A stretch of 64,000 bases of DNA from assembly GCA_964019425.1 (NCBI GenBank), contig OZ025797.1:558001-622000 (forward strand), in the 5' to 3' direction. The notes below the pieces were generated by a model. It was not told where the DNA came from and did not search any database. It worked only from the letters and a program-made list of their open reading frames with translations. A program made the position numbers and the translations under genes. This DNA comes from Flectonema sp. DT1601. Taxonomy: Eukaryota. How positions within the stretch are numbered: the stretch's first letter is position 1; each line of letters begins with the position of its first letter. Positions 1 through 64,000 of the stretch are shown in pieces.

Positions 1-6
1 AATGAT

Positions 7-11192: not shown

Positions 11193-12053
11193 TCACAAAG
11201 AAGAATCTACACTGTGGTGCAGATTACTTCTGCGTAGGGGTTGTACCGGGCTGTTTCGATTCGACGGGACACCGGCACCACCACCACCACGCGAGTTAAA
11301 GAACGACCCCAACGCTTGTTCAACCTTCGCTCTCGTTCCGTGTGAGACTTCCTCTCGAGAAGGAATGTCTGCTGGGTTTAGCTTCGTGCTTACCCAGGCA
11401 AGGGAGTAGGAACATTTCAAAACTAAAAGGCATTCAATCGCAGTTATCAAACACCTGTTGAGACTGTGTGAGCGAACACACATCTTCTTCCTAAAAGCAC
11501 CACAAACTGTAGTGTTGTCAACCCAGATGGAAAGGTGGTCGGCCTTTGCAATTCCTTTGAGTGTCTGTCCAAGAGCGTCCGCTTCAAGGATATTTATATG
11601 TCGGTCTTCACCAGCAGGCCATGCCGCACCAAGAATTTCCAGCTCACCTGTTTTCCAAACGATGACACCTCCCCATCCCTGCAATGAGGCATCTACAAAC
11701 ACTTCGGCAGTCCTCCCCTCTTTCTGCTCAGGCATAATTATTCTCTCCTTCTGCACAGCACCGATCCACATTTCTAATTCCCTCCTTACTGAACGGGGCA
11801 ATTTTAGTACCTGCTGTACTTGTAGGGTCCCCTTGTTCAAGTAATTTGTGACCCTCGGGACCTCTCGTGGGCTCGGAAGCCTTCTGTGTCAGGCCGCATG
11901 TCGTGTCTACAATGAAGTGTCAACTTGGAACTGTTACGAACAAGAGGAATCCAACTGGTTAATTAAACCACAGCATGTCGCTTCATCACAGCGGTGGCGA
12001 GTGGCATGTGACTTCTGCCCAGTGCCCTGAATGCCAACGCTGAGAGATCAGGT

Positions 12054-12088
<35 letters not shown>

Positions 12089-22037: not shown

Positions 22038-22116
22038 GGCTATATAGCTCAATTGATAGAACGCCGGTCTGCAAGAATGGCGGTCGAGGGTTCAAAACCC
22101 GCTGACGGTGGTTTTT
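22038..22116 (+). promoter_or_regulatory. Degenerate tRNA-like sequence (A box, B box, T5 terminator), divergent from the LINE 5' end
   Basis: TAGCTCAATTGATAGAAC D-arm, ccggt-CTGCAAG-aatgg anticodon-like arm, GGTTCAAAACC T-loop, then TTTTT. The acceptor stem does not pair. Confidence 0.5.
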
Positions 22117-22140
22117 GTTTGGTGCTCAGTTTCGGTGGCA

Positions 22141-44090: not shown

Positions 44091-47000
44091 TTAAATCTTT
44101 ACGGCTCCAGGTACAGCTTTGCCATCGCGATTTCCCCTGTTGTGTTTGATTTTTTTTATGCACCCCCCCCCCTAGGGGAACTTTGATACGATACGAAAAG
44201 ATTTATCTGGGAAGAATACTGCAGGTCTTTGCACAAAAAAATAAAAATACTGTCACCATGAAACAGAAGGCGTTGAACATTGCCTGGTTTCTTTGGTGGA
44301 GGCCACGTGAACGTAGTTGAGCACCTCTTGCCTACGCTACCGTAACAGTGAAAAACAGCTGTAAATTAAAATCAATGTGAAAAAAATAAAATGAAACCAA
44401 AGGTTAACAGTGGACGAATCCGACGTAAGGCTTTCCTAGACTACTCGAGTCTTCAGCGGTCCGCTCGGTGATAGCAGCCTAGGAAGGACAAGCTCACCCA
44501 TCTGCCTGGAGACCATTCAAATTGGCTCGCTCTAAATTGGCGACCTAAACGCTCTACCCTATCGCCGCGATTGCCACTGACAACCTCTAACCAACTATAC
44601 TACGACCAAACATAAGGGGAAAGGGGAAAGTGTGCTTATACCTGTACAGCCACGACTCTCGATTTCCGTAGTGGGGGGACTTTGATACGATACGAAAAGA
44701 TTTATCTGGGAAGAATACTGCAGGTCTTTGCACAAAAAAATAAAAATACTGTCACCATGAAACAAAAGGCGTTGAACATTGCCTGGTTTCTTTGGTGGAG
44801 GCCACGTGAACGTAGTTGAGCACCTCTTGCCTACGCTACCGTAACAGTGAAAAACAGCTGTAAATTAAAATCAATGTGAAAAAAATAAAATGAAACCAAA
44901 GGTTAACAGTGGACGAATCCGACGTAAGGCTTTCCTAGACTACTCGAGTCTTCAGCGGTCCGCTCGGTGATAGCAGCCTAGGAAGGACAAGCTCACCCAT
45001 CTGCCTGGAGACCATTCAAATTGGCTCGCTCTAAATTGGCGACCTAAACGCTCTACCCTATCGCCGCGATTGCCACTGACAACCTCTAACCAACTATACT
45101 ACGACCAAACATAAGGGGAAAGGGGAAAGTGTGCTTATACCTGTACAGCCACGACTCTCGATTTCCGTAGTGGAGCCCCCCGCGGCACTCCCTATATAGT
45201 GCACTATGCTTGACTCTTTTGCTATATAACTTGTCCCTTGGGCTATATAGGAAAAGCAGCAAAGAACTCAACATGGAAAAAGCCGTTAAAACATTTGTCT
45301 GGTTAAAACGGATCGGTGGGTAAAATTACGCAAGAACAACCATAAGGTCTCCCACGGTTTAATGTAGCACATCTCCACGCCAGTCTCAATGACCGAGGTA
45401 ATGTACTAAGGGGGAACTTTGATACGATACGAAAAGATTTATCTGGGAAGAATACTGCAGGTCTTTGCACAAAAAAATAAAAATACTGTCACCATGAAAC
45501 AAAAGGCGTTGAACATTGCCTGGTTTCTTTGGTGGAGGCCACGTGAACGTAGTTGAGCACCTCTTGCCTACGCTACCGTAACAGTGAAAAACAGCTGTAA
45601 ATTAAAATCAATGTGAAAAAAATAAAATGAAACCAAAGGTTAACAGCCGTAGTGGGGGGGGGGTACAAGCTGTCGATAAAGTACTTTTTCCGAATTTTGG
45701 TAAATATAACCTTCCCGGGGGCAAAAAATACCCAGGACCCCATCAGAACCCCCAAAAATGTGATTTCGGGGCCGAAAAAACCTCGATTTGGCTGATTTCG
45801 GCAAAGGAATGAAAAATCTCAAAAAGTGTGGACCGTGTGGTACCTGGGGGTCCAATTTTGAGGCCTGTGAAATGCACCTTCAAATAATTTTTTTTTACAA
45901 TGAGAAGAGGTGAGTCTTGGTGTGCCCCTGTATGCGCAGTTTGCTAATATACCATTTCCGTATCAGTTTCCACCTCAAGAACACGCCACGAAAAAGAACA
46001 GCGCTCTCGCTCGGCCATGCTTGAGGCCACGAGGCTCACGGGCAGGATAACGCAGCGGAAAACAACGTTCTGCAGGGCAGCTCACAAAGTCATTCTGCGG
46101 AGGAGAGCATTGATCCCAGAGTGCATGAAAACACCTCCCGAGGCATCTCTGAAGTCACGCAACAACACTTGGACAGTCAGAAGTAAGATACGCGCGAGAA
46201 AGGGGTTCAGAAACGTCCAGTATCTGAATCGTGATCACAGAAGGCTCACAGAATGGAGAAAGCGCCACGTCAGTACCCCAAACAGGGATAATCCTGAAGA
46301 CAGCTGTAGTGGTAGTGCGTCAAATAGCAGTGCCATAGATAAGCAGCAGCGACATAGGGCAACATGCCCTATCCAAAAAGCCGTTCAAGGCATCACTTAA
46401 GACCCAACCATACTCACCAGCAGGGCATACAAGACACTCTAGTATATGCAGCATAAGGAGAAGTACGAAAGACACACCCGCTTGCAACTGTACCCAAACG
46501 AGGGAGATATACTCCTGGAGTCTTGGAGTCGTAACAACACTGCAGATATTGCGGCAAGAAGGGATCGCCGCAGAGACATGCAACAAAGTCCTGAGTGAGT
46601 GACATAGTTGAAGCTGTCGCAGGTGCGCAGACAGAAGGGAAGCGGGTCGAAGTCACCAACTATATCTCGAAGGACAGTCCGACTTGTTGATGGATTCAGG
46701 TGATCTGTCGGTGACCTGACTTCTTGAAGCAGCAGCTTCCTCTTCACCCTCCGTCACATTGCTGCAGCATGATACTTCCTCTAGTCCCCGTCGTGCTCGT
46801 GGGATGAAGCTAACAACCGTTGTGTTCGTTGTCATCCTGCACCCCTCAAGGGATGGGGAGGTTATTCAGTGTTGTTGATAGTTCTTGGTCAACTGATGGA
46901 ACCAGTGGCGTGAATGTTGCCCTACTGATAACGTACAACATATTCCAGAGGCACACGGGCTTCCAAAGGCTACCACATCAACGCAGGACCACCGACCCTC

Positions 47001-48291
47001 TTCAGATTGGCAAGAACAAGCACAACAGGAGGCGCTACAGGGGCTGAACGTACCACCCCGTCCTCACAGGGAAGACCTCTAGACAGCAAGGTCTAATGCT
47101 AATCTGCCGTCTGCATCCAAGGATTGGTCCTCTGTCTATCTTGTACAGAAAGAAGCACAGCTTCGGGCCGAATTTCGAAAGCTGAGCACATGAGATGCTC
47201 AAGAGAAGGCCAGTAGCCTAAACATCGGACAAGGGGGAATTAACACGCCGGGTCTCGTGTAGCATATTATTAAGGTTCAAATCAGGTCGATAAAAATAAA
47301 AATTGGGTTCCCTTTTCATCCCCCACTCAACTCGGAGGGAAACCCTGGTTATGGATTGCTCAATGCACGGAATTACTTGTAATTTTTGTGAGCCCTCCTA
47401 ACACACCCCCTGTTTTCACCCCCCTCAGGTACCACACGGTCCACACTTTTTGAGATTTTTCAAAGACTTGTTCTAAAGTGCCGAAGAACTGTTTCTTTGG
47501 ATCGCAATCCCCATTTTTGGGGTATATGTTGCAGTTTTCATAATTTGGGTGCACAAAAAACTTGTTCTCCGGAAAAAAACCGAAAGTGCCCAAAATCTCC
47601 GTAAAATCGATGCTTGTACCCCCCCCCTACCCCAGACGAATAAGAAGCTAAGAATATTTTTATTTCTCACACCAATCCAATACTAAATAACAAAAACATA
47701 CATCAAACACGGATCAAGTGAAGTGTTCTTTGGCTGTACACCAGTACTGGGGAGTAGGTTAGCATCGAATCCGGGAGTCCAGCCAGGCTTTCTTTTGAAA
47801 TGAGTTCTGCAGTATTGACACATGGCAGTACGGTCTGGAGGTACAAAAATCCACGACATGTGGTGACGGTTAGCACGCTCACTTCCTCCAGTTTGAGTTT
47901 TAAGTGGAGTAAAGTAAGTATTATTAGACGATCCTGAACCAAAACAGGTCACAGTCGTTGCCTCAACTTCGATTGCAGAGTCTGGAGTCTGTCTGCCAGC
48001 CCAGGCCATGTCGGGATTACTTTGAGCACCCGATTCTCTAAAAATAGATCGAGTTGATGTTGTGAAATGACCGAGTCCTCCCGATGGTTTACTAACTCTG
48101 AAGTTGTTACTCATCTCTCTTCTTGTATAATATTCTTCATCAAAATGTGAATCTGACTTACCACCCCAAACTGGGTTCCAAAAATTCCAGGCAGCGGTCT
48201 CATTGTACCTAGTAGTCCCCATCCCATCAACATTTACAGCGAGTTCTTTCGGTTTTTCAGCTAACCGAACCCCGCATCGCCGCAGGGCCAT
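44091..48291 (-). CDS. Mitochondrial zf-CHCC protein (NDUFS6/COX5B-like zinc-binding subunit); exon 1 48291-47702, predicted exon 2 44136-44091
   Basis: MALRR presequence-like start; VTCFG...H..WIFV...CQYCRTHF. GTATGT donor at 47701 and CAG acceptor at 44139-44137 join in frame to give MGNRDGKAVPGAVKI*. Confidence 0.6.
44175..45655 (-). mobile_element. Head-to-tail array of a 499-bp non-coding element (44175-44674, 44675-45173, internally deleted copy 45410-45655); putative non-autonomous Penelope-like element
   Basis: Near-identical direct repeats with a 499 bp period. Motifs are shared co-linearly with both ends of the PLE at 58.4-63.6 kb. Confidence 0.7.
45654..47627. mobile_element. ~2 kb non-autonomous TIR DNA transposon with G-run termini and a probable TA target duplication
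   Basis: Ends G10TACAAGC...GCTTGTAC9; ~40 bp inverted subterminal match between 45812-45850 and 47421-47460; TA at 44173-44174 and 47628-47629; no intact transposase. Confidence 0.75.
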
Positions 48292-49899
48292 ATTCTTATT
48301 ACTGCTTTGAGCTAACTGAGAAAGACTTATTAACAAACAAAATAAATTGCAGAACTATCCGTTATTTCATAGAACACTTTCGTGTCCTAGCTGGTTATTT
48401 AATATGAAAACAAAACGTACAACGTAACTGTTCTGAAGGTGTAAGACAATCAGTTTGATAAAACAACAAAAGTAAGAATCATAAAACTATTCTTTCCCCA
48501 ATCCCCAATGAAATCCTGGAAAGTCTGAAGTACAAATATCGGAAGGATCGATGTCAATATTCCTTCCTAAGTATTGAAGTAAAAATATCTGTTTGAGGAT
48601 AGCTTCTTGTGAGACTTTATTCCATTCTGTTATTTCTGTTTTCAAGATGTCAGTTCTCAAGATGATTTCATTGAGAGATAAACACCCAACATGTACAAAT
48701 AACAGAGAAGGAGACACTTCGCTCAGTAATGCCTTTCTCGTCAGGCTTTCCTCCCTTTTTATATGTTGCATCTCATTCTTGAGGGGGATAAGATAAGTGA
48801 ACTAATCCTAACTCACGAGTGTATTGTAGTCGGAGCCGATCACTAGTAAAAGTAATGAATTCCCTTATTAAGAAACAGCCTGTTCTTTAAGAACGAATAT
48901 TGTTGAAGGACCTGTTTGCTCAAAAATAATATTTTTTTTTACGACACCTTCGACAATACACATCTGTTGGGTGAACTACTATAATTTTTATAACTCGTTT
49001 CCTTAGAAGGTTTGATCTTCATTAGTGGTATCTCAACTAATTCTAATTTATTAAATACATACCTCTCGATTACAGAAGTCATTCAGATTTGTGACTTCTG
49101 ATGTTATCGAATCACTTGCTGTAATTCAGTGATGTCATCAGATTTCTCCTCAAACTTGAAATCCGATAGCTGCAGGATGCACTCCTCGTCTTGTGTGGCT
49201 CTCAAGAGGTTTACTCTACCTGTTGACTTCACTTCATATATGTACCATTTTGAGTGCTGTCATTCAGGCTTGCTAGCACGGTGAGATGACGAGGCACTGG
49301 AACCTGTTGACTTCACTTCATTCTTAAGCCGCCTGTCTACTCTGTTACGTAGTCGAAGTCTTCACATTCACATCTCTGACAACAAACTGACAAAGAGAAT
49401 GTTTATTATGAACGAAGTCAGTAAATCTAAAACAAGAACTTCAATATGAATACCTCCGATGCAGTGCAATGATAATAATTGTCTACTTTTGGGATAGCTC
49501 ACACGCAGTCCACGAAGTCTACAGATTTGTTCAGCCCGAAGCTCAGTCAGACTCTTGGAATGTGGCTGTGACTGTGACTGGTATGATTCACTTCAGTAAT
49601 GTTACTACAAATACCAAAACTCGTACGATGTACCAGCACACACGATAGAGGGATAACTTAATGATATGATCAATACAAACATGTTTGATCAATTCTTGTA
49701 GACATCCTTCCAATTAGCACCCAAAACCTAAAATGATTCATTCTGTAATAGTAAGGCTGTTCAATGTCATTGTGATTACGCCTCCCACTCTTTGACAAGT
49801 GCGGTTTATGAGTTTGTATTTATTTTGAAATGGTTTTCCCTTATCTTAAGAAGGGTGTCGCCTTCCCTAACGTCAAGTTTTTTAATCAAGTGAGGGTTA

Positions 49900-51576
49900 C
49901 TATGCTTTGTTCCATGAGAAGAATCCTTTTTCATCTTTTGATGGAGGAGTTGCATTCAATATAATATCACCATCAAGATCAGAGTAGATGACACCAGACT
50001 CTGTTTCAGTATCACAACCATCTTCAGTAGGTTGTGTTGTTTGTACTTCAGACTCAATGAAATCGACGTGAACATTGTAGCCGGCGCCAATACGTTGCTG
50101 TTCGTGTTCTAATGCAAGTTTAGAGACAACAGTTCTTTCGATTTCATGAGCTAAAGAGCGAGCACCATATCGAACATTGTAACCACCTTTGAGATATCTA
50201 ATTAAGTCTTTTGACCAAGTTAGAGTCATGTTGTGTTGTTTAGTCGCCTTCTCTTTCCAAAATGTTAATTCTTTGTCGATCAAACTTTCAATCTCCTGAT
50301 CAGTAAACGGAAGAAAGAAAACCGTTTCATTAATACGACCGAGGAACTCATCTCTTTTAAATGCTCGTTTTAGAATTGGTTGAACAGTTTGGTCTCTAAA
50401 CTTACGAGAGATTAATGATCTGTTGGAGGTTATTTGATTTTGTTGTTGGGCTGCGGATGCTCGGAGGCGGATAGCTTCATCAGCGATTTGTGTTTGAGCA
50501 AGATTAGAAGTCATAATAAAGATAGCATCACTACAGTCAACAGTTGTTCCTTGTCCATCAGTTATTCTACCATCATCAAATACTTGAAGAAGGATTGTTA
50601 ACACATCCGGATGAGCCTTCTCTACTTCATCCAACAGTACGATTGATTTCGGATGGTCAGTTAATTTCTTAGTTAGTTGTCCACCTTGTTCATGACCAAC
50701 ATATCCAGGTGGTGATCCAATAAACTTAGAGACTTCATGAGAATGTTGATATTCACTCATATCAATTCTTATAAAAGTAGTGTTGTCACGATCCTCGAGA
50801 TACTTTGACACTTGTTTACCTAATTCAGTTTTTCCTATCCCAGAAGAACCCAAAAATAAAAACACCAAAGGCTTTGATGTATCACACCATCCGTTCTCCT
50901 TTCTCCGTATCGCAGAACCGACGGCATGAATTGGTCCCAACTGACCAACGATTTTCTTCTTTAAATGTTCTTCAACAGGATATATGCGTCGCTGTTCTTT
51001 TAACTTTATTTGATAAGCATCTTGTGAATCATTTACCTTTGACATTATCTCTTCTAACATGTTAGGGTCACGTTCATAAAGATGTTGAACGAGTGTTTCT
51101 GGAGTGGCGATGGCGCCTGTTTCGCGAGTGATATCGGCACCTGCGGAGATGATATCGCAGGCAATGTTTATGTTCTGACTTAGTATTGCGAAATGTAATG
51201 CTGTGAACCCCTTCACAGTAGACACGGAGTTTACAGGGAAATTATGGAACAGATTCGGGTGGGGCTTCTTACCGCTGGCTTCAACGTTCACAGATGCGCC
51301 ACTCTCTAAGAGAATAGTAACAGCTTGTCTATTACCTGACCAGGCTGCAATCATTAATGGTGTCCATCCCAGTGGGTGTTTGGTATTGGGATCGATGTCT
51401 GTTCCGATCTTCTTTGCAATGAGATCGTCTTGCTGAACTCCACGTTGGGCACACCACTTCCACAGTGCAATACTAGAACGGTCTTCAGCTCTAACAATCT
51501 GTTCTCCTCCTACCCCCACTGCGAAACCAACACCAATACCTGCAAGCAGTCGTGCTGACCGCACTCTCCAACTCAT
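49900..51576 (-). CDS. CLPB: Skd3/CLPB-type mitochondrial ankyrin-AAA+ disaggregase
   Basis: Ankyrin repeats HPLGWTPLMIAA and GFTALHFA fused to a single ClpB-D2 AAA+ domain: AIRRKENGW, FLFLGSSGIGKTEL, DEVEKAHPDV, FKRDEFLGRINE, YGARS. Confidence 0.9.
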   Translation of the reverse strand: MSWRVRSARLLAGIGVGFAVGVGGEQIVRAEDRSSIALWKWCAQRGVQQDDLIAKKIGTDIDPNTKHPLGWTPLMIAAWSGNRQAVTILLESGASVNVEASGKKPHPNLFHNFPVNSVSTVKGFTALHFAILSQNINIACDIISAGADITRETGAIATPETLVQHLYERDPNMLEEIMSKVNDSQDAYQIKLKEQRRIYPVEEHLKKKIVGQLGPIHAVGSAIRRKENGWCDTSKPLVFLFLGSSGIGKTELGKQVSKYLEDRDNTTFIRIDMSEYQHSHEVSKFIGSPPGYVGHEQGGQLTKKLTDHPKSIVLLDEVEKAHPDVLTILLQVFDDGRITDGQGTTVDCSDAIFIMTSNLAQTQIADEAIRLRASAAQQQNQITSNRSLISRKFRDQTVQPILKRAFKRDEFLGRINETVFFLPFTDQEIESLIDKELTFWKEKATKQHNMTLTWSKDLIRYLKGGYNVRYGARSLAHEIERTVVSKLALEHEQQRIGAGYNVHVDFIESEVQTTQPTEDGCDTETESGVIYSDLDGDIILNATPPSKDEKGFFSWNKA

Positions 51577-52782
51577 TTTATTATTTCTGAGCGAAGGACT
51601 TAAAGTTTTAATTTACGTTAATGAAATCAAAAAAAAATTATTTGAACTGCTGTTCTCTTGATAGACAATTTCGATGAATAACAACAACTTTACGTGCTCA
51701 ACTAGCAGTGTAAACAATACGCGCGATAAGCTTCACTTCCAAACAGCAAACACACAAAATAATTACATCAAAAGGTAGATTGCAACCGTCGACACCCCGA
51801 AACTATCTTCGTCGACCTGTTCAACATCAGGTCCGACCAGTGGGAAAAGTCAGGTCAGCTACTTGTTTTTGTTTCAAGTTTCGGGAAAGAACAGAAAAGA
51901 GGGGGAAATAAAAATACCCATTTCATGGGAAGCAGGTAAACGCTGTCCAAGTTCTGTAGTAAAATCGAAGATCAGTTTTGTTTACCTACCAAACCTGATA
52001 AGAAGCTCACGGAGCAAACATACCAACTGTACCAGAGATGAGATCTGTGTAGTAATTGTCAGTTTGTATTAGTCACATCCAATCGGTAAAACAACTCCGC
52101 ACACATCCAAAGGTCTCGCCGTTAGAATGTGATGTGATTTTTTTTTTTTTTTTTTTCGAAGAAAAGCAGTTCGCAACAAACATCTCCGCAAAAACAAGGA
52201 AAGAGAATACTGACCTACCTCTCCAATTGACTGAATTACTATCTAACTGAGCTGGACTGGTGAGTAAAACAACTGCTGTGGTACCAATGGACACACCGAA
52301 GAGTGATAACTCCTCAGGACCTCCCAGGTCAGCCGTCTAATTATTTCATCAGTTTCCGTAAGAAAGATGACGTTGGAGCGAAACAATAAAAGTTGGAGCA
52401 AATTCAAAAGAATATTTTCCATTTTAATAAAATAAAAAAAAAAACGAAACTAACACGCGAGGGCATCAGAAACGTTCGGTTTGTTTGTTCATCATTTCCC
52501 TCTTTAAAAGCACAACAAGTTGCCTGGGATCGTTTTTTTATTACTTTGAGAAGCCATCAAGCTCCAAGGGGGAAAGCACAGGCGGAGTACAATACACATC
52601 TGCAAAAGTATAAGATAGAATGTGAGTTTATTATAAAAAAGTGCACTAAAATAAAATATAAAAAAGAAAAGTTATAAAAACACATTGTTAAAAGTATAAG
52701 ATAGCTAAAGAGTAATAAGGGTAGTTACAAAGTGTTATAAAATTATTATTGTGAGTATTCCTAAGTTAGAAACACTCACACC

Positions 52783-54180
52783 TCACAACCTGGAAGTGAC
52801 GTTGCCGTATTCCTTTTTATCTGTGACATTCCTGGTGACGTATTTCTGTACCCAGGGATGTTGCTTCTCAAGTTCTTTCCATTCGTCACCGTGTTTATTA
52901 ATCGGTTGAACAGCTGATTTTGTTTGCCAAAATAGAAAACGTGTTTTTGGATTTAAAGCCAACTCATCGAGCATTACTGCAGCAGACTTACTTGTGAAGG
53001 TGCTGCACAGCCACAGAGGTTGAGGAGGTTCATCTGAGTCAGAATGAAGAGTTGAATTCGATAAAATATTTTCTTTTGCTGCCCGGCTGTGAGAAGAGTG
53101 AGCACCGTACTTTGGACTTCCGTATCGGCTACCACTGTAAGGAGTTATTTTCAGGAGGTTCGAATCATTGACAATTTGAATGGCTCGCTGTTGGACGGCC
53201 AGTGGGATGGCACCGCAATTGATGAGAATCTGAGAAGCGTCTTTCACCAGCTGCTGTACAAACTTCCTGACAACACCAAGAAACTTCTGAGCCGTTGCGA
53301 ACCCATGATGGATAACTACAGCGTGAATGACAACGGGATTTCCAATCGTCAGGTGCTCAGCAAGAGCTGCACCCAAAACCATTCCAGCAGTCGTACATCC
53401 CGAGCCCAGAGGAAGGATGATGACATCGACTGGTTCCGCGTCTCCCTTTTTCACCTGCTCAACAAATTCTAAAAACCCTCCGACATTACCCAGCACTCCA
53501 ACAGGATTAGCACCTCCTGGAAACAAGACTGACGAACTGTCAACTTTCTTATTAATATTCCACAAAGTTGAAAGTTTATTTTTAGCAAATAAAGGAAGAA
53601 TAGTATTAGAAGGGAAGGATATAAATGATAAAATATTCAAAGCGTTGTCCCTGTCATTCGCTTCTTTTTCAACATAAATCCCAGTCACGTTTTCCGATGT
53701 GTGAATTGAGGTGGCGAGGATTTGGTTGCTGCCTGGAGCACCAAATGTGCTGATTTCTTTATTTTTTTGTTCTGGTCCAGGTAATAAGAATTCCAAAGAA
53801 CGGATTTTGTTCCCTCCGTAAGTTTCGTTGCTGAGGTCTTCTCTTTTAACTTGAATTTTAATTTCATTATCGTCTTGTGATAAGTGAAGTTTATGAACAG
53901 GAGTTGGATAATTACCGAGTTTCTTCCAACCAATACTTCCTCTGATCTCGGGTAAGAATCTCGCTAAGACGCAACCATCGTAAGACATGTTGTTACACAA
54001 GGTGGCGGGACTAACTCCATGTTTATAAACTCTGAAGAAGGTTCGAATGGCAACAAATATCGTAGTCGCGACACCACCTCCAATCACTGTAAGTACAGCG
54101 ACCAGAAGGTTTGGACTGTACTTCCACAGACATACTCCACACACTACTACAGTTATTGCTTTTATTAATCTAATTATCAT
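52783..54180 (-). CDS. PLP-dependent D-cysteine desulfhydrase / ACC deaminase family protein with an N-terminal membrane anchor
   Basis: PTPVH, KREDLS..YGGNKIRSLEFL, PGGANPVG and GSGCTTAG motifs. Likely ATG at 54180. Confidence 0.82.
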   Translation of the reverse strand: MIIRLIKAITVVVCGVCLWKYSPNLLVAVLTVIGGGVATTIFVAIRTFFRVYKHGVSPATLCNNMSYDGCVLARFLPEIRGSIGWKKLGNYPTPVHKLHLSQDDNEIKIQVKREDLSNETYGGNKIRSLEFLLPGPEQKNKEISTFGAPGSNQILATSIHTSENVTGIYVEKEANDRDNALNILSFISFPSNTILPLFAKNKLSTLWNINKKVDSSSVLFPGGANPVGVLGNVGGFLEFVEQVKKGDAEPVDVIILPLGSGCTTAGMVLGAALAEHLTIGNPVVIHAVVIHHGFATAQKFLGVVRKFVQQLVKDASQILINCGAIPLAVQQRAIQIVNDSNLLKITPYSGSRYGSPKYGAHSSHSRAAKENILSNSTLHSDSDEPPQPLWLCSTFTSKSAAVMLDELALNPKTRFLFWQTKSAVQPINKHGDEWKELEKQHPWVQKYVTRNVTDKKEYGNVTSRL

Positions 54181-54640
54181 TTTATTTATATTTCTGAAAA
54201 TAAAATAAAAAGGCGACCTTCCCCACAAGACCAGCCACTCACTAACACACTACAAGAGGCTGGAAAGTGTCATAAGTCATGGTTTGAATATCTTTGATAT
54301 ATAAATTAAATAATTTGATATTTACTCCAACTCCGAATCCCTTCACAAAATAATGATTCGTAACAAGTAAGTGATTGCAGCAGTGAATACAACTCCTTTT
54401 GATGTTTTTTCTTTGTTTTTTTTTGTTTTTTTGTTTTTTTTTCTTTTTTTTATAACGGGGCAAGAACCTCAAACAAAACAATGGGGTGATGGACAGGAAA
54501 AAAGGAGCCATAAAAGGTAAGAAAAAATATTGTGTTCACATTACAGAAGAGCATTTACTCTCCACTCGGAGAGGAGCTGATTGTAAATAAAACACCAACA
54601 AAAAATAATTATAAAGTTGTCTCATTAGCGAATGACACAA

Positions 54641-56962
54641 CTAATCGAGGTCTCGATCGTGCATAGCAGAAGACCCAACAGCGTCATCAATCTTCGCATA
54701 TTCAATAACAAGATGTCTAGAGTAGATATGAGTGTTGGACAGCTTCTGTCTGGCATTTGCTGCCTCTTGAGCGCTCGTAAATTCAACGAAAGCGAATCCT
54801 CGATGAGGACGTTTTGCAGCTCCAGTGCCAGAAGCACCAATTGCTTTACGAGGAAGACGAACAGACTTAACCTGACTGAACGCAGAGAACAAGTTAGCAA
54901 TGTCTTTTCTAGTTGCTTCAAAGGGAACGTTTTTAATTGTGAGTTTGAGTGGATTGCAACCTTCAGGGCAGTCAGTTGAAACTGTTTTCTTATTTTGTTT
55001 GCTATCTTTAGCGAACTCTACAGACAGGTGTCGCTGCATCAAAACCTTACCCTGAAGCTGTGTCATCGCCTTAGCCGCCGTCTTGTGGTTTTTAAGTTGA
55101 ACGAATGCGTAACCCTTCGTCTTCCTCTCTGTGTCTAAAGGTAAGCTGATGGATTTAATGTGAGAATCCTTATCAACACAAGACTGGAGAAGTCTTTCAA
55201 GGTCTACCTGAGAGATATTAAAAGCGATGTTAGTGATGTATAAAGTCTTCTTATCTTCGTCAAATATATCTGTCGAGGATTCGGTTGTTGGATTCTCAGC
55301 TTTAGTTCTGTTTGTCTCTTCTCTCTTCTTGTCGCGAATCTTTTCATCGACGTCCTTCAATGCTCCAACAGGAGCCCACTCAAGGAATAAAGGAACTTTA
55401 TTAAATAATCGAAATGCGAGTTTTCGGAATGCAACTTTCGCTTCCTGAGCCGTCAAGTAACTAACCAGAGCGATGGTAGTATCCGGAGGGGCGACTACCC
55501 GTTCGACTGCTCCGAATCCGTCAAACAATGCAGTAACGTCTCTTATGTTTGTGTTCTTAGGGATGTTCTTAACTAATATTATTCTATCTGATCGTTGCTT
55601 TACTCTACTAGAGTCTGTTAAGGCAGAGAGGTCGAGACCTTCTTCACTAAATATTTCTTTTACTTCACTTGTTAAGTGTGCCTCACCCATTGCAAGACGA
55701 GTAGCAATATTCTCAGCATTTACATCAACAAGCTCACTCTTATCAACTTTCAGTCTTTTTGAGAGAGCGGCAGCGACGGTATCTCCCGACATGAACACAC
55801 TGTTCCAAGAGCCTTCATTACCTCTCTCAGCCTTTTGTTTTAATTCTTTCATTCGCTTGTACGAACTCTTTGCGCTTGACGTGTCTTCCGATTCGAAAGG
55901 GTTTGCCTTACCAGCCTGAATGACTAACATACGACCTTGAAAAAATGATCCTGCTAAATCTTCATAAGCTTTAACAGCATGTTCAGGAAGACTAAATTGA
56001 ATAAACCCAACACCCTTTGATTGTTTACTATCACGAGTTAGTGGAATGTGAGCCTCAACAATCGGTCCAATTCTTTCAAAAAACTTTCTGAGTTCCTCTT
56101 CTGTTGTAGAATACGGTAAGTTTGATACGAACAACCGACCGCTTTCTGAGATGATCTCTTCGTTGTCTTCGTCTTCAAGTTTTTGAAGAGCGGGGATGTC
56201 ATTAATTTGAATAGTTGATTTCCTTGTTGTTGTTTTCTTATTTATGTCTTCCTTTAATCTTTTTGACGGTGATGATCCCGGAGAAGGTGGAGGGGGGTCT
56301 TTACTTTTTTGTTTCGATTTAAAGAAATCCATGTCAGACATGGTCTGTAGTTTTTGCTGACGATCTCTCTCATCGTCGGAATCGAGAGAAAGCGCTTCAG
56401 ACTTTGTGGGTGAGGGAGGAGGCGATTCAGAATCAGATTCCTGGTTAATAATATCACCCGGTCCTTCCATGTCGTTTTCCCAAATACGTCGGCTGGAACC
56501 TTTTCCTATTTCCATAAACGCTTTGATGGAGTCTTCTTTATTTTTATTCTTCAATCTGTTTTTCTTTTCCATCTCAGCTACTTCCTTGTCATGCTCTGCC
56601 TTTCGAGCTGCAATCGCAGCCTGTTCTTCAGCTTGTTTTTGATTACGCTTTTCTTCTAACTTCTTCTTAGTGTGTTTACTCCAGGCCTTTTTATTCGCTT
56701 CTTCATCACCGTACCGGACGGCAAATTCAACGGTGAGTCGTGCGGTTCCTAAGAAAGCTTTGTTAAGTTTTTTTACTGCCGCCTCCGCTTGTTCGGATGT
56801 CTTGTATCCCAGGAATGCCATCCTCGGGCGACCACTTCCCTGACTTTTGATGACCGCACAATCCGTAACTTCACCGCATCCTCCGAAAAGTTCCTTTAAT
56901 CTTTTTATATCAACCTTACTAGGTAGGCCAACCACTCGAACTCGAGTGGTTTCCTCTGCCAT
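54641..56962 (-). CDS. MRD1: Multiple-RRM ribosome biogenesis protein Mrd1/RBM19
   Basis: Five RRMs; ESGRLFVSNLPY, WNSVFM, RLAMGE, PLFLEWAP, KNVPFEAT and HRGFAFVEF match the Mrd1 architecture. Confidence 0.9.
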   Translation of the reverse strand: MAEETTRVRVVGLPSKVDIKRLKELFGGCGEVTDCAVIKSQGSGRPRMAFLGYKTSEQAEAAVKKLNKAFLGTARLTVEFAVRYGDEEANKKAWSKHTKKKLEEKRNQKQAEEQAAIAARKAEHDKEVAEMEKKNRLKNKNKEDSIKAFMEIGKGSSRRIWENDMEGPGDIINQESDSESPPPSPTKSEALSLDSDDERDRQQKLQTMSDMDFFKSKQKSKDPPPPSPGSSPSKRLKEDINKKTTTRKSTIQINDIPALQKLEDEDNEEIISESGRLFVSNLPYSTTEEELRKFFERIGPIVEAHIPLTRDSKQSKGVGFIQFSLPEHAVKAYEDLAGSFFQGRMLVIQAGKANPFESEDTSSAKSSYKRMKELKQKAERGNEGSWNSVFMSGDTVAAALSKRLKVDKSELVDVNAENIATRLAMGEAHLTSEVKEIFSEEGLDLSALTDSSRVKQRSDRIILVKNIPKNTNIRDVTALFDGFGAVERVVAPPDTTIALVSYLTAQEAKVAFRKLAFRLFNKVPLFLEWAPVGALKDVDEKIRDKKREETNRTKAENPTTESSTDIFDEDKKTLYITNIAFNISQVDLERLLQSCVDKDSHIKSISLPLDTERKTKGYAFVQLKNHKTAAKAMTQLQGKVLMQRHLSVEFAKDSKQNKKTVSTDCPEGCNPLKLTIKNVPFEATRKDIANLFSAFSQVKSVRLPRKAIGASGTGAAKRPHRGFAFVEFTSAQEAANARQKLSNTHIYSRHLVIEYAKIDDAVGSSAMHDRDLD

Positions 56963-58433
56963 GTTCTTGTGTTGGCTGGTGGGGAATTGTTTTCAAATAA
57001 TTATCAAAAGATCTGTACATCACGAAGTAAGAAGGAAGAATAATAAAAAACATCCATTCACATGTTTGCTAACAGAAAGCTTGCAGTGAAGAATTGATAG
57101 TTTATGATTCGTCATCAGATGACAAACAGAACAAACAAGTATCGATTTCTTGTTTGTTCTGTTTGCCGAAGAGACGGCAACAGAAGTCTAAAGGGAAGGA
57201 AGGTTCGCACTGCTCAGCAGGAAACCCAAGATATACGTCAAGAGTATTTTTGACCAAAAGAAAACATCTAAGAGTCGAAAGAACAGCTGTAGTGACTAAC
57301 CAGTTTTAAGAAGAGAACTTCAACATGGAAGGTACTCTCTGATATTAATCACGTGTTAAATCAGAAAGTAATGATGTCAGCTAAGGACGCAGCAGACTAA
57401 ATGATAAAGGACAAGAATAACGTAGAAAAGGTAAATAAGAAAGATATGAGGACATGTCAAAAGTCTGGTGTGGGATCTCACTTTACTCGTGATCTTTGTT
57501 TACAAAAAGAAATCCTGCATTTTTTGCTTGTGTTACAACAGACTTGTTGAGGTTCATTATCATGTAGAAGAGTTTAAGAGACAGAATGCAGTCTATTCAG
57601 AAAACACTTCTGACACGGAGATTATAACACTTGATTATAAGGTTCCCTACCACAAGAGTCATGATCACAGTACAGTTGTCTGGGTATAACTATGCATTTC
57701 AAGTTGCACAATGGACTCAACAGCAATTGACTTTCTCCTGCCGCATACAAATCAACTCAAAGCTGATGGAACTCTTCCGAGAGTTACTCAGAACTCTTGC
57801 GATCAGAATGTGATACGTCCAAAGGAAACGCAAAAAGTGTAGAACGTGGTGCTAAAAACTAATAATAATCATCACGTTAAAAGTATTATTTTACCGATAA
57901 TTCCATTTATTTTTATAATGAAAGATTAGAATACAGATTTAGGGGATGATACTTTTAGCAAGGCTGCATATGTTACGTTTGAGTTTCTCTGTAGCCACAA
58001 GCAAGTTCTCCGTAAGCCCAAGCAAAAAATGCAGGATTGTGATGCGTAACTTAGCCTTTTAAAGTAACTATTGGCCCGGGGGGAAGACTGTTTGATTAGG
58101 TGCATACGAATATAAATCTCTGTATTGTATCAGAACTCAATAATAAAATTAAAAAACTCATGACTTGCTAGTTCGTAGCACACTACGTAGCACTCACCTT
58201 AAATAAATTAAGGTAGTAATGTCCAAAATAAGTTGGAATAATATGAGAGGATTACGTAGTTCAACATTAAATGTTGGGGCATCAACAGGTTTAGAGTGAG
58301 AGAATTTTAATGGCAAAGTCCAGAGTGGGGAGGTTTTACCTAAATAATACCATCTTCTGTGTCCTTCTAAGTTCTATGCGAGAACTACAAGAGATCTTTG
58401 ACATGTTCTCATATTGAAAAGAGAGGGGGGGCC

Positions 58434-61400
58434 GGGGGGTAACTTGATACTAATATTAAATGGAAAGCAACTTGAAACTGGCAAAAACGAGAATAGGGTT
58501 CGGCCAAACCTGGTTGCAATATAAGAAATCAACAGTTGGTATCGATAGAAAATCCCATATGTGCTGTCGAATATGGGGATTCGGGGGCCACGTACTACAG
58601 GTTGAGCACCCCATGCCCTGTAGCCCGTTACAGCTTAAAATAGTATTCCTTCACACTTCAAAGGTAAATAAATATTAAAGGAAAATTAAAAAAAGAAAAC
58701 TATTTTTGCAAAAATAATAAAAGAAATAAAGAATAAAAATAAAATATAAATTATTTCTGGTTCGTAGCACACTACCAGTGGAGCACATCTCGCAATACTT
58801 TGCTGCGAGTGATAATTAACTACGTTCGCTTTGCTCTCGAAAGACTGTACAATGAGTTTGGTGTGATCTTAAGCCTCGTAAATTAAATTGTCTTCCGGCC
58901 TGAGATTCCGTGGCACCACACGCAGTACAGATGAATAATCCCAAACAACTCAAACAAACATCATAATCACAGTCTTTTTGTCTACATTGGAATGCAAGAT
59001 TATAAGTGGTTTGTGGCATGTTGCGATCACAGATATTACAGTACATATTACTACTTACCTTCGCAAATTTCAGGTTGTGTCTTGCTGGACATAAGTGGAG
59101 CTCTTCTTTAAAGATTAGAATGTCTGAATCTTCTAATAAATTAATAAGTACATCCACAACTAGCTCTTCATCAATCGTATTAGAACTTGAGGAAGTAGTT
59201 GAGGAAGATGAATCGGAAGAGGTCACAGATACGGTTTCTGAGGTTAAATCTGAGCAACTTGACATTGTTGTGGCTGCTTTCATTTTGATCTCATCGAAGT
59301 ACCAGTAATGCAACAGTTCGTAAACATCATAATTAACGTTGTCGAAGGTTAAAAGGTTCATAGTGGCACCCGCTTTCGATAGAAGAGTATCAGCGTCGAC
59401 AAAATTAGGACACATTTTCGCTAATTCAGGTACTATTAAATTCATGAAAGCCTCATAATTCCATTGCGACATAGTAAATATGGTGCATTGTTTTCCGTGA
59501 CTTCTCGGTAAAATTGGCATATAGTGCTCAGAAGTAGTATGGTACGCCATTACACCGATCGTACCCCAAAAATATGTATCTTGTGTACTGGCTGGGGAAA
59601 TCCATCGTAAACTTTTTTCCTGCACGCTATTAATAGTGATTAGTATTAAAGAACAACCCATTTCATCTAAGAAAGCTTGAATATACACATGATCTGTATA
59701 TGTATTACTGTCAAGTACATCTTCTGTGAATTTTTCATAATCTGTGTCTACAAAACTTTGGTATTGCGCCTTCTTTAAAGTCAGTCTACGATGTATAACT
59801 CTACGTACCCATTCAGCGTTTATGACTCCATTTTGACAAATTATTAGTGCCATAGATTCAAAGAAACAATTACCTGCTGTGTTTACCGAGGGTATTGTTA
59901 AGTCCCAGTCCATAGTTTCTAGTAGAGTTTTCATATCCCGAAACGTAAAATAAGAAACCAACTCGTCCAAATGTCCCAGATTCACCTTGGCATCCGAATT
60001 GGTAGGGGATGACAATTTTTGAACTAGGACAGCTGTTCTGTCGGTTTCAATTTCATCTTTTTCGATGGGCGGGTACGTTATATAGTTTCTTTCACCAGTC
60101 GGGTAGTAATAATCTTTCTTCAAGCCTTCAAGGATCCGGTAGAAAAGATTGATGCATCTTTTATTGACAAAAGGATATTCTTCATAGAATTCGTCACAAA
60201 ATTCCTTGTAGCCGGTTGATATGTGATGCTTTTTAAATTTTCTAGTAATCATCCGATAAATTATCCATTCAAACTCTATTAGTAGGTCAGAGAGGTTGTT
60301 ACAAATCATGCTGGCTCTATACATCGCTCCTTTAACTATACCTTTGGGTATGGAATCAGGCATCGTGGAGTCTGCATGCACGTACTGTAAAGGTTTGAAG
60401 TTCCACTCTTTCCGATGAACGGAGAGACGAATAAATTTCTTTTTCACTTTCACTTCTTCCCTTGCAATGTCTTCCTCGACCCGTATCCGTGCACCAAGAA
60501 ACACCACATCATTACTATCTAGGGAGGTATCTTTGTAGTCCATGCCGTACATCTTTTGCGGCGGTGGTTTTGTCCCCCAGCATAAAAAATCATCAATATA
60601 TCTTACTGTTAAAGTATGTGACTTCGCAATTTCCAGAGTTGACTGTTCTATAAATTTCTTCTCAACTGCATAACAATACAAGTTAGCTAGAAGCGGGGAG
60701 GCATTACCACCCATGGGTATCCCTTTCGTTTGACGGTAGCATTGATGACTACCAATCGGTTGGATTAAAGAATAGTCGATACACATGTCAATTAGTTTAC
60801 CAATCATTTCGGAAGTGTATTCCTTTGTGTTTGCATCAACTCCGTCTGTGAAAAAGAAAGTCTTGGACTTTCCACGTGCTCTGCTATTTCGTGCAATATG
60901 TTTCTTACCGGAAAATCTAAAAGCTTCATCTACTGCTTCTTTGCAATTTCGTTTAAGTACCTTATGCTTCAGGTTGCTGTACATGGTGGTGAAGTCATAA
61001 GTTTTGGGTTCAGCGTATTTTAAAAATTCAGGGTAGTTGGATTTAATCCGTTGTATTACCTCATCTACTGAGTCAACAATAAAATATTTTCTAACACCAG
61101 TCTTTACATATTCCATATGGTCCTTTGATTTTAGTGTGAGCAGTATTAACTTAATAATTCCAGTAAGTTCTTGTTGAGCGTGTGTCATTACATTGGATCG
61201 AAAAACTCTCTCTCTTGTATTGGTCACCTTCTTTGATTCGTCAGTCTCTTTGTCAGGTTCATTCGTTTCCTCAATCAAAGTTTCACAGTTGACAGAAGTA
61301 CCTGCAATCCATCTAAGGCGGATGTCTGGGATCTTATGCAGTTTAAAAATCCCATATAAGTACGGCACTGCGCCAGTGATTTTTGGAAATTTGAGTTCCT

Positions 61401-63560
61401 TATTTGTTTTCATTAACCCGTCTGTTAATACATTTTCTACTTGTTCGTAACTTTCCATTTCATTTTTCAATAGCTCACAATAATAAGCTTTGCACATTAC
61501 TGCGCAATCATGTCTTGCTTTATCCACTGGGAGGAATAGGACATGTTTTTTTAGGTCCTTTAATTCTCTCATACACTTTGCTAAAGTTGCATCGTTGGGT
61601 AAGGGTTTTAATTGTATTTGTGAAGTGAATTCTTCCTTCAGCCATCTATTTAAGACTTCGGCGTTTGCTTCTCTGTCGCTTTTAGTTGTCCCAATCATGA
61701 ATCTCGTTACTTTTTCGGTAAATCTATCAGCTGCTTCATGAAGTTCTTGTGTCATCTCATGTTGTGAACAGTGAATACGGTAAAGCATTCCTAACTTTAG
61801 TACCTCTTTTAGTTGATCACTACATTTCAAAGAAGAACAATGTCCTGCAACATGTTTGGTATTACAATTATCTTCTTTGTATTGATAACAAGGACATTGT
61901 TTATCATTTAGTGGAGGTGACTTTTCTAACTCAATCGTATTTGTGTTAAATATTTTCGATCCTAAAGTTCTGCTGAGTCCATAGGATGTTTTGGTAGGTA
62001 AACCAGAGGGTAGTAACTTCTTATACTTTTCTTTTATGAATACTGCATTAAAGTCCATTTTCTTCACACAAGGGTGCAGCATCTTCAGACAAAACCAGTG
62101 GCAATCAACCACACGATTCTTTTTTCTTTCTCTTTTAATTTTAAGAGCCTCGTTGAGTGCTACAATGATTGCTTGCATTTTATTATTTTCTTTCACTTCG
62201 TGACTTGCAAATCTTCGGATCCAGTGAAACATTCGTGAAATTCTTGTGAAAGACCAGTCTTTAATAACTTCAACATTAAGTGCTTCAAGATTGCATAAAT
62301 GCTGTAGTTGTTTCCTTAAGCCATAGAATAGGCGAAACTTTGGGTTCGGTCCGACATCAGTGATGATCACTCGACCATTATTTATTTTCGTCCAATTTGA
62401 AGGGGGTTCGTTAGTATTCTTTTTCCGTCTTCTTCTTTTTATCTTTTCCGTCGGGACTTTCGTTCGTGTGGATGCTTTTTTGTTATTTTGTACTTTCTTC
62501 TTTCCCAGTATATTATAATGCGGTTTGAAATGACTGATCCAAAACCTCTCGGCTGGGTCAGCCATATTACGGAATAGGAAACTGTTGTTTTTCAGGAAGT
62601 CGGGTTCATTAATTACTTCCAGTGTCACTGGGAATAATGGATATTTTCTCTTACGTATGAATTTGTATAATGGTTGAGTACATTTCCCCTGTACTGAGCG
62701 ATTGCTCCAGTGTTGTTTTTCTCGATCTCTCGCAGTTTTATAAGTTTGACCAACATAACGGATATGTCCTCTCTCACACAATAAACCATAAATTACACCT
62801 TTACAATCTTGAGGCTGTGCTTCAAAAGAGAGTCCACGTTGTTGGCGTGCTGTCCTTAACTTCTTTGAATAGTTCTGTTCAAACTTTCGTCTTGCTTCTT
62901 TTAATGAAACTTCGTACTGATCATCTCTACGTTGGTTCTTTTCTAAGATCTTCCGGTCTTTAAATGCAACAGTGTGAACAGAACTTTCATCTTTGGCTCT
63001 GCGAACTACTGATTTGGCAATTCCAAACGGTATATGGTCAAGAGCTAAAGATAATTGGGATTTGGGAGGTGAAGTATTTTGGGATAAATTATAATTTTGC
63101 ATGAGTGTTATTAATAAAGGTAACTGTTAACTCTAAAATAGTTAACTATTTTTTTGGGAAGCTTGACCCTAAAACTGCTTTTTTAAGAAAATAAAAATAG
63201 TAAAAATTAAATAAAAATAATGAAAAGAGATTAAAGCTTTCTCAAGAAGGCTAAGGAAATGAAAGGGAAAAAGGTTGTCAGGGGATTATTGAAAGCAGGG
63301 GATGAAGGTCGGGTCAGGGCTACTTCCCAGCCACAAAACCTTCATCCTAAAACCCCTGCAGCACTTGATGACTGCTCCTCATCTAATATGGGATCTAACC
63401 TACTAGTCCGCAGACGACTACCCTACTGACGGTGTTCCTATTAGTCAGTCAATAGTGTCCATCTACGACAGCGGGTCATCAAATACACAAGATAATAGAA
63501 AGAGAAAGAAAAGAGAGAATTGACTAACCCTGTACTGAACAACCATCTCAGAACGGAAGA
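58434..63560 (-). mobile_element. Penelope-like retroelement with N-terminal endonuclease (Naiad/Chlamys-type domain order); boundaries inferred
   Basis: Single intact ORF with GIY-YIG before RT. Ends inferred from motifs shared with the 499-bp repeat and from a G-run at 58425-58439. Confidence 0.8.
58816..63102 (-). CDS. PLE polyprotein: GIY-YIG endonuclease, reverse transcriptase, OTU-like cysteine protease and zinc fingers
   Basis: GVIYG..RYVGQT...R.KQH...AERFWI..YN (GIY-YIG); PVDKA, YDFTTMYS, QTKGIPMGGNASPLLANLY, RYIDD and VFLG (PLE RT); AGNCFFESMA...VRR...HYMPI (OTU-like); Cys clusters at the C-terminus. Confidence 0.88.
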   Translation of the reverse strand: MQNYNLSQNTSPPKSQLSLALDHIPFGIAKSVVRRAKDESSVHTVAFKDRKILEKNQRRDDQYEVSLKEARRKFEQNYSKKLRTARQQRGLSFEAQPQDCKGVIYGLLCERGHIRYVGQTYKTARDREKQHWSNRSVQGKCTQPLYKFIRKRKYPLFPVTLEVINEPDFLKNNSFLFRNMADPAERFWISHFKPHYNILGKKKVQNNKKASTRTKVPTEKIKRRRRKKNTNEPPSNWTKINNGRVIITDVGPNPKFRLFYGLRKQLQHLCNLEALNVEVIKDWSFTRISRMFHWIRRFASHEVKENNKMQAIIVALNEALKIKRERKKNRVVDCHWFCLKMLHPCVKKMDFNAVFIKEKYKKLLPSGLPTKTSYGLSRTLGSKIFNTNTIELEKSPPLNDKQCPCYQYKEDNCNTKHVAGHCSSLKCSDQLKEVLKLGMLYRIHCSQHEMTQELHEAADRFTEKVTRFMIGTTKSDREANAEVLNRWLKEEFTSQIQLKPLPNDATLAKCMRELKDLKKHVLFLPVDKARHDCAVMCKAYYCELLKNEMESYEQVENVLTDGLMKTNKELKFPKITGAVPYLYGIFKLHKIPDIRLRWIAGTSVNCETLIEETNEPDKETDESKKVTNTRERVFRSNVMTHAQQELTGIIKLILLTLKSKDHMEYVKTGVRKYFIVDSVDEVIQRIKSNYPEFLKYAEPKTYDFTTMYSNLKHKVLKRNCKEAVDEAFRFSGKKHIARNSRARGKSKTFFFTDGVDANTKEYTSEMIGKLIDMCIDYSLIQPIGSHQCYRQTKGIPMGGNASPLLANLYCYAVEKKFIEQSTLEIAKSHTLTVRYIDDFLCWGTKPPPQKMYGMDYKDTSLDSNDVVFLGARIRVEEDIAREEVKVKKKFIRLSVHRKEWNFKPLQYVHADSTMPDSIPKGIVKGAMYRASMICNNLSDLLIEFEWIIYRMITRKFKKHHISTGYKEFCDEFYEEYPFVNKRCINLFYRILEGLKKDYYYPTGERNYITYPPIEKDEIETDRTAVLVQKLSSPTNSDAKVNLGHLDELVSYFTFRDMKTLLETMDWDLTIPSVNTAGNCFFESMALIICQNGVINAEWVRRVIHRRLTLKKAQYQSFVDTDYEKFTEDVLDSNTYTDHVYIQAFLDEMGCSLILITINSVQEKSLRWISPASTQDTYFWGTIGVMAYHTTSEHYMPILPRSHGKQCTIFTMSQWNYEAFMNLIVPELAKMCPNFVDADTLLSKAGATMNLLTFDNVNYDVYELLHYWYFDEIKMKAATTMSSCSDLTSETVSVTSSDSSSSTTSSSSNTIDEELVVDVLINLLEDSDILIFKEELHLCPARHNLKFAKVSSNMYCNICDRNMPQTTYNLAFQCRQKDCDYDVCLSCLGLFICTACGATESQAGRQFNLRGLRSHQTHCTVFREQSERS

Positions 63561-64000
63561 CGGTTGTTGACAATAAATATTTATTGAACATTTTAAAAAA
63601 ATAAAAAAATAAAGAAGTAAACTTAAACTTAATCTTCGTTGAAGATCTCGAAATTAATTCGTACTCATATCTCTGAATAAGGTACATAATATTATGTGTC
63701 CCAAATTCCAATTAAAATTCATAGTAATTCATCATGGCGGTACATTTGTACTCCGAATCAGCCAAATTATTCAGTACCAATTGGTACTTAGGACTAAGTA
63801 TACAGCTTTGAATTGTATATACTCTTCTTAGCTGCAACTGCCTCTAAATAAACATTTAAAATCAACCAAATTATTATTGAAAAACACAGTAGAAACGATT
63901 ATAACTTTAAAACAAATTTCTTCCAAACAAACGAACGATAACCAACCGAAGATACGCCCTTAAAGAAACAGGTAACAAAAGCTACCGTTTAGTTCAAATC

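Follow-up and report, generated by a model that had tools for sequence, protein, structure and literature searches.

The Chlamys clade of Penelope-like elements (PLEs) targets (C)n or (CA)n and, as described in the part of PMC8557442 drawn on here, has no canonical hammerhead ribozyme; what substitutes for the hammerhead in Naiad and Chlamys elements is treated there as an open question. In many PLE hammerheads stem III is missing, and these are weakly active in dimeric form (PMC4209133); in the one PLE studied in vitro the hammerhead is protein-assisted, and insertion can do without its cleavage (PMC11167929). Chlamys elements are already known to have non-autonomous partners, such as MRC1, that lie head-to-tail and resemble them at the 3' end (PMC8557442), and tandem retrozymes have been argued to derive from PLEs (bioRxiv 10.64898/2026.07.22.740005).

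A second body of work concerns small self-cleaving RNAs. In the twister-sister ribozyme, loop L1 is formed by G5-C6-A7-A8-G9 and G59-C60-U61-C62^A63-U64, with the P1 stem adjoining G5 and U64 (PMC5660989). In their minimal form the human lantern ribozymes have the corresponding loop G36-C37-U38-A39-G40 / G7-C8-U9-C10^A11-A12, which is conserved while their stems covary, and the single mutants U38A and A39U have relative activities of 0.47 and 0.8 (PMC11620745). A second stem is present in all of the twister-sister and lantern ribozymes described in the relevant sections of these two papers, and the human twister-sister-like ribozymes are presented in PMC11620745 as having no clear function.

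Here we compare these systems with a 64,000-nt stretch of the Flectonema sp. DT1601 genome (the window, meaning the whole stretch analysed), which holds a PLE and a cluster of short non-coding repeats. The repeat is a likely PLE partner, and the covarying stem that it shares with the element, whose loop matches twister-sister, is a predicted minimal self-cleaving ribozyme, a reading to which we assign a probability of roughly 0.5. The novelty lies in a hammerhead-less PLE that carries a covarying stem together with the catalytic loop of twister-sister; an earlier note on this DNA had missed both the stem and the match of its loop. Outside subscription papers and bioRxiv supplements, we found no report joining twister-sister with Penelope, a retrotransposon or a retrozyme, and none of diplonemid Penelope elements.

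The autonomous element and the repeat cluster

Element and repeat are both oriented along the minus strand, which also carries all of the long host ORFs at 23-57 kb of the window. The parts of the element are these:

58819-63099, minus strand: intact ORF of 1427 aa, Chlamys-type PLE
aa 101-196 of the ORF: GIY-YIG domain, N-terminal to the PLE-type RT
aa 402: CxC motif (CPC), before the RT core
aa 525: DK motif (VDKA; DKA at 526), before the RT core
aa 701/793/834: RT motifs A/B'/C
aa 1076 and aa 1192: Cys motif and His motif of an OTU-like domain
C-terminus of the ORF: C1-like Cys cluster
58433-58815, minus strand: 3' UTR, with the 3' terminus GUAUCAAGUUACCCCC adjoining a G-run
63100-63570 (outer limit provisional), minus strand: 5' UTR, with hairpins, a pyrimidine tract and short 5' motifs

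Judged by ORF domain order and motifs, this is a Chlamys-type PLE. The intact ORF bears out the earlier note's proposal of an autonomous Penelope-like element. The extent to 63560 given there is provisional as a 5' boundary. [quoted passage not shown] That tail is OTU-like and C1-like in our element and Josephin in Chlamys-1_cBra. The RT3-RT4 interval, where Chlamys-type PLEs have an insertion-in-fingers domain, amounts to 92 aa, counted between the YDFT and GIPMGG motifs and not by alignment to reference PLEs. GVIYG and YVGQT motifs are found in the GIY-YIG region, and the endonuclease has no CX2-5CxxC and no CCHH, the feature that separates Chlamys from Naiad. The GIY-YIG and OTU matches fall below curated Pfam cut-offs, as does the C1-like tail match; the OTU cut-off is passed by a sister protein, P0018, that can be aligned along the element's entire tail. 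No pLTR or partial tandem of the element was found within the window, of which 900 nt remain on the upstream side of the ORF.

The closest named relatives of the element protein are from Diplonema papillatum (39-42%), DIPPA_16664 among them, which points to a diplonemid-like protist as the likely host. Such protists are not among the hosts of PMC8557442, and the name 'Diplonema' does not occur in the portion of its supplement covered. A search for PDB relatives found none, and the protein's Atlas neighbours (<0.8) serve as leads only. Its cluster has 29 members, and among the 15 listed are full-length, near-identical copies, which marks the family as young. An X4 contig that matches 58433-58507 exactly and has different flanks supports the 3' end of the element independently. 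Matches of the contigs of runs X3 (from a close relative) and X4 used throughout have a depth of 2-7 on real pieces and include many low-complexity matches, so that gaps in their coverage carry no meaning. The fold of the 5' UTR has a z of -2.0 (5 of 100 shuffles are equally stable). Just past the element's 3' end, nested inverted repeats at 57444-58414 (57444-57471/58387-58414; 57511-57530/58019-58038) are possibly further small DNA elements.

The repeat cluster and its surroundings comprise the following:

44175-44673, minus strand: repeat copy 1
44674-45172, minus strand: repeat copy 2, head-to-tail with copy 1
45173-45410, minus strand: 5' extension of copy 2, of which at least the first 25 nt are part of the repeat and the remainder is likely so
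45411-45653, minus strand: repeat copy 3, its 3' 236 nt (45411-45646) fused to a 7-nt 5' tip
44433-44485, minus strand: long hairpin of the repeat, both arms of which lose 10 nt in X3
44600-44647, minus strand: GUACAGG, pyrimidine tract and GUCGUAG, in the same order at 63463-63535; possibly splice signals
45654-47627: target element, TA-flanked (TA at 44173-44174 and 47628-47629), with terminal inverted repeats

Copies 1 and 2 are 99.6% alike, and the repeat unit had been taken as fixed at 499 bp. That figure is one truncation point: in contigs of other runs (X3) the repeat continues as far as 45178 and about 45198 and then meets the following copy head-to-tail, which gives junctions with longer 5' ends, and the flanks differ as well. 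The 5' extension of copy 2 sits within the cluster, which is bounded by G-runs, and copy 3, which the first description overlooked, keeps the 3' module discussed below and none of the 5' motifs. Copy 1 as a whole folds with a z of -1.45 (equalled by 6 of 100 shuffles).

The match between the 3' termini (GUAUCAA) of repeat and element was confirmed where it had been placed. In the window the terminal motif is found at four places, namely the 3' ends of the three repeat copies and of the element, against 0.02 occurrences per shuffled window, for a pattern that had been written from those same four ends. G-runs adjoin all four, in keeping with the (C)n insertion of Chlamys, and repeat insertions have a fixed 3' end, variable 5' ends and a G-run as target. 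Here the cluster has split the G-run at the left end of the TA-flanked target element, itself 1.97 kb long, with G-rich terminal and 41-nt subterminal inverted repeats and without a long ORF. Truncated proteins of the element's own family start after poly-Pro, i.e. after a C-run, in 2 of the 14 listed, as does 1 of 11 in a sister family, and such poly-Pro junctions are present in P0012 and P0013.

Target-primed reverse transcription by a Chlamys-type protein leaves just such traces: a constant 3' end, ragged 5' ends and (C)n targets. A role as non-autonomous partner of Chlamys-type PLEs is therefore likely for the repeat. An arrangement of element and partner is of a sort already known from MRC1 and retrozymes. 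Like MRC1 and other non-autonomous Chlamydomonas Chlamys elements, the repeat is non-coding, lies head-to-tail and resembles an autonomous family at its 3' end; unlike in MRC1, for which the part of PMC8557442 consulted describes nothing of the kind, the shared part can be narrowed down to a covarying stem whose loop is ribozyme-like. Non-LTR retrozymes (bioRxiv 10.64898/2026.07.22.740005) are likewise small, tandem, non-coding, PLE-dependent units with one putative ribozyme each, truncated such that a dimer would be needed in both cases. The repeat differs from them in having no type I hammerhead and in its variable unit junctions.

A shared 3' stem and its twister-sister-like loop

The sequence common to repeat and element is concentrated in a 51-nt module, which we call module B:

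44298-44348, minus strand: module B of repeat copy 1; also at 44797-44847 and 45534-45584
44338-44332 with 44310-44316: 7-bp stem, repeat
44331-44327 and 44322-44317: loop strands GCAAG and GCUCAA, repeat
between 44319 and 44318: predicted cut in the repeat, inferred from published twister-sister/lantern cut sites
58583-58633, minus strand: module B of the element
58624-58617 with 58594-58601: 8-bp stem, element
58616-58612 and 58607-58602: loop strands GCAUG and GCUCAA, element
between 58604 and 58603: predicted cut in the element, inferred in the same way

The sharing of the motif ggccacgt...acag, reported before, is confirmed, and it conceals a covarying stem beyond chance. A local alignment of the repeat (44175-44420) with the element (58400-58815) has a score of 58 that none of 500 shuffles reach, and among 616 other window segments the module's top match is the element 3' UTR. 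The module pattern occurs four times in the window and not at all in 100 shuffles. Repeat and element align without gaps over the 51 nt, and nearly all of their differences fall in two 7-nt blocks that pair with each other in both. Six consecutive stem pairs carry a change in each strand, and one more double change, the seventh, belongs to a pairing between the loop and sequence downstream. These seven double-change pairs are reached by 2 of 500 shuffles and slid controls give 0-1, in a count based on two distinct full sequences from which the structure was also drawn. As a further null, 31 chance matches to the flanking motifs (3 in viral DNA and 28 in GTDB) have a mean of 2.3 of 8 stem pairs and a maximum of 5, against 7 and 8 here, and a stricter pattern scan of viral and GTDB DNA gave no matches. 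The shared 3' module is real and above chance.

Folding predictions are less distinctive. The stem has a probability of 0.82-0.87 in the full repeat unit, and in the element of about 0.9 within a 200-nt stretch and 0.35 in the whole 3' UTR; the fold z of the module is unremarkable (-1.27, +0.40). The G.U pairs of the module point to the minus (sense) strand as the one that carries it. In the X3 comparison, which has a contig depth of 2-7 and left two 1-nt insertions unscored, nine substitutions lie near the repeat module, five of them on paired columns (three keep or gain a pair, two break one), and two lie in the element module, one of them compatible with pairing at column 33, the other breaking the closing pair. 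X3 breaks the closing pair of the stem in the repeat and in one element contig, plus one outer pair (depth 2-5), and the 11 loop letters are untouched by substitutions at a depth of 2-7. The U>C change at 58608 is compatible with a 30-33 or a 33-53 pair; a model of a 3-bp GCA/UGC local hairpin is broken by it and was rejected.

The loop itself reads GCAAG-AGGU-GCUCAA in the repeat and GCAUG-GGGU-GCUCAA in the element. Against the twister-sister L1 strands, GCNAG and GCUCA(U/A), the repeat matches at 11 of 11 positions and the element at 10 of 11 (A8U), in register with P1: the stem that adjoins G5 and position 64 is present, with 7 bp in the repeat, 8 bp in the element and the six double changes between them. 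The repeat loop is also the lantern loop with U38A, and the element has A39U in addition. Within the window, both loop strands closed by at least 5 pairs occur only in the four modules, and closure by at least 7 pairs was seen in 4, 3 and 5 of 20000 UTR-sized shuffles. Two such closed-loop matches, both with long spacers, occur across 204 kb of bacterial and viral loci that are mostly GC-rich, and of 25 chance matches in a scan for the loop pattern none has a stem run above 5. The match was noticed after the fact, so a factor of tens should be allowed on these odds. Against the predicted cut, one RNA contig copy ends at 44323, five nucleotides beyond it.

Module B shares with twister-sister (PMC5660989), the lantern LINE-1-rbz and the lantern OR4K15-rbz (PMC11620745) both L1 strands, the stem register and the combination of a constant loop with a covarying stem. 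It differs in that the second stem is replaced by a 4-nt loop and the SL4 stem-loop is absent. Across L1 the repeat and element form no pairs of a second stem, for which the four-nucleotide link between the loop strands (AGGU, GGGU) leaves no room locally; UGCAA lies downstream in both, but without the stem of SL4. An Rfam search of repeat and element gave no match, and we do not class module B as a twister-sister ribozyme proper. A further difference concerns conservation: module B is kept on the sense strand of two mobile elements that have diverged from each other, and the human lanterns are described in PMC11620745 as not conserved.

Two other ribozyme classes were considered and rejected. 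Loose descriptor fits to the nested double pseudoknot of an HDV-like ribozyme, as in L1Tc/Ingi Pr77, differ between repeat and element and are not common to them, and a type I hammerhead in the repeat would rest on a lone CUGAAGA...GAAA core at 44456, whose stems are weak and whose cleavage position is occupied by G. The near-hammerhead core in the long hairpin of the repeat (44428-44485; CUGAAGA, GAAA and a 5-bp stem III) is partly removed in X3, where GAAA is deleted.

Possible mechanism and competing explanations

Cleavage by module B is predicted at about even odds from its loop and stem. Both RNAs would be made by minus-strand read-through together with host genes, and cutting at GCUC^AA would free units from a long precursor. 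The RT/GIY-YIG protein of the element's or a sister family may then nick a G-run, at which the C-run at the RNA 3' end would anneal and prime reverse transcription; repeated insertion into the leftover G-run would give rise to the tandem. Since only AGGU or GGGU joins the loop strands, the second stem would be needed in trans, supplied by strand swap with a neighbouring tandem copy or with the help of the element protein. The missing stem has a precedent of the same class, as PLE hammerheads lack stem III. It is possible, though less likely than not, that in this Chlamys-type lineage the hammerhead was replaced by a stripped-down twister-sister completed by tandem strand swap, and that the repeat is retrozyme-like.

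Columns 30 and 33 of the module (A-U in the repeat, G.U in the element, G-C in X3) would suit a strand-swapped dimer, and pairing to a downstream CCY fits them equally well. The central RGGY contains no Watson-Crick palindrome, and a swapped dimer would have two G.G mismatches. Dimer folding comes out 6.7 and 8.8 kcal/mol below two monomers, a gain that holds for most hairpins and that we do not count as evidence. The varying tandem junctions between copies argue against one fixed circle or circular template.

If module B does cleave, the twister-sister/lantern loop would have a conserved function in a eukaryote, and the substitute for the hammerhead in some hammerhead-less PLEs would be explained; a 51-nt module under visible selection ties that question to the question of what twister-sister-like ribozymes do. 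If it does not cleave, the module would still be a precisely mapped candidate RT-binding element in a clade without biochemistry.

Which protein drives the repeat is a separate matter. The earlier note saw it as a minimal RNA mobilised by "this PLE family"; what stands of this claim is a partner inserted with the signature of target-primed reverse transcription, whose driver could be a sister family. We put a sister Chlamys family as driver only a little short of an even chance; this is compatible with our preferred reading of repeat and ribozyme and changes the partner alone. At no variable stem position do repeat and element agree, and outside short motifs they cannot be aligned; the proteins of three other families appear to share an assembly with the element family or with each other. 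One sister family, 38% identical over 1085 aa, has an OTU tail and likewise a poly-Pro junction. Pulling the other way, the 3' terminus and the module match the element in the window.

Module B may alternatively be a non-catalytic handle for the RT, made of a stem and a conserved loop and perhaps an RGG/CCY pseudoknot, with the twister-sister match due to chance or a vestige; this is possible and would be our second choice for the module's function. It fits all of the conservation and covariation data, among them the loop-to-downstream pairing, where one pair is doubly changed and two X3 changes are consistent. The absence of a second stem and of SL4 favors it, as does the dispensability of PLE hammerhead cleavage for insertion in vitro (PMC11167929). 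The R2 protein, which is reported to bind a pseudoknotted RNA (PMC12222951), would be a precedent. However, it leaves unexplained why 10-11 of 11 catalytic loop letters lie in register, and outer-stem pairing and the pseudoknot compete, the latter, as we infer, appearing sterically strained in a monomer.

The full model of the earlier note, in which modules at both ends of this very family are cis-elements for its RT and endonuclease, is unlikely as a whole. Every 5' motif quoted there was found where it had been placed, and in co-linear order; the significance of this order ranges from borderline to none. The 5'-side local alignment score is reached by 281 of 500 shuffles. A co-linear chain test is reached by 2 of 300 with 5-mer seeds and by 135, 138 and 161 of 300 with 6-/7-mer seeds, and global alignments of the 5' side by 5 and 6 of 500, in windows picked after seeing the motifs; p is therefore about 0.01 in some tests, and further tests are not significant. 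A strong hairpin does stand beside the same motif in both RNAs (44433-44485; 63295-63359), as had been said, but the two have no sequence in common, and the 5' motifs pair with different partners in repeat and element RNA. One PLE tested in vitro has a protein-binding region 5' of its ORF (PMC11167929), which agrees with the model. Against it, X3 shortens the hairpin and mutates two motifs (ctacgac and ctacccta, each with one T>A change at a contig depth of 3-5), copy 3 has no 5' motifs, and the repeat unit exceeds 499 nt. The pyrimidine tract and first AG look like an ordinary splice acceptor, the plainest reading because they resemble sequence upstream of host genes; GUCGUAG holds that AG, which is missing in an X3 relative. 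Reading the 5' motifs as a cis-intron is a poor fit (observed host introns end in A-rich ...ACAG). The chance that the 5' motifs are homologous and functional is about one in three.

Finally, that the repeat is unrelated to PLEs, being a satellite or part of the neighbouring inverted-repeat element and similar by chance, could draw on its single 17-nt BLASTN match to the element and its position inside a DNA-transposon-like end, and is largely refuted, to the point of being very improbable, by the covariation and null sets, the common 3' terminus and the insertions themselves, whose 3' end is fixed, whose 5' ends vary and whose flanks are different in other runs.

Distant relatives and other features of the window

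A protein-based locus scan found 10 distant loci (26-42%) in metagenomes and nothing in viral contigs or GTDB. Module B is absent from these 10 loci, five of which include a 3' UTR, by alignment score, descriptor and covariance model, and it appears to be lineage-restricted. Four motif searches for it in the supplement of PMC8557442, the text of which has line breaks that may hide a match, returned 8 matches, none of the 7 shown being the module, and Penelope or GIY-YIG were not found in the portions covered of 7 supplements of PMC10161547.

Different 3' structures exist among the distant loci. The Chlamys-type L008 (1565-1740) and L004 (1975-2150) have in common a different structured 3' UTR, in which 4 of 39 pairs are double-changed and for which Rfam gave no match; L008 is a head-to-tail tandem. 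The 3' UTR of L007 (2160-2225) has two crossing complementary segments, read by eye as a possible H-type pseudoknot. Protease-like tails vary among the relatives P0016-P0179: of 49 scanned, 11 have USP, 5 Josephin, 3 OTU and 1 Ulp1, which suggests that this PLE clade has captured deubiquitinase-type domains repeatedly.

Several other features of the window deserve mention. A 22-36-nt motif just downstream of the element stop codon (58754-58775) recurs at 58165-58186 and, on the opposite strand, at 7882-7917, and these two further sites are without module B. Overlapping minus-strand ORFs at 11193-15694 encode an RT by Pfam; with their RNase H-like and recombinase-like look, we take them to resemble a DIRS/VIPER/TATE-type element. 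A LINE that looks intact, encoding AP endonuclease, RT and RNase H, occupies 16175-22125 together with an upstream 678-aa ORF, and a large ORF at 1-7269 has AAA, sacsin-like and BMT5-like methyltransferase domains.
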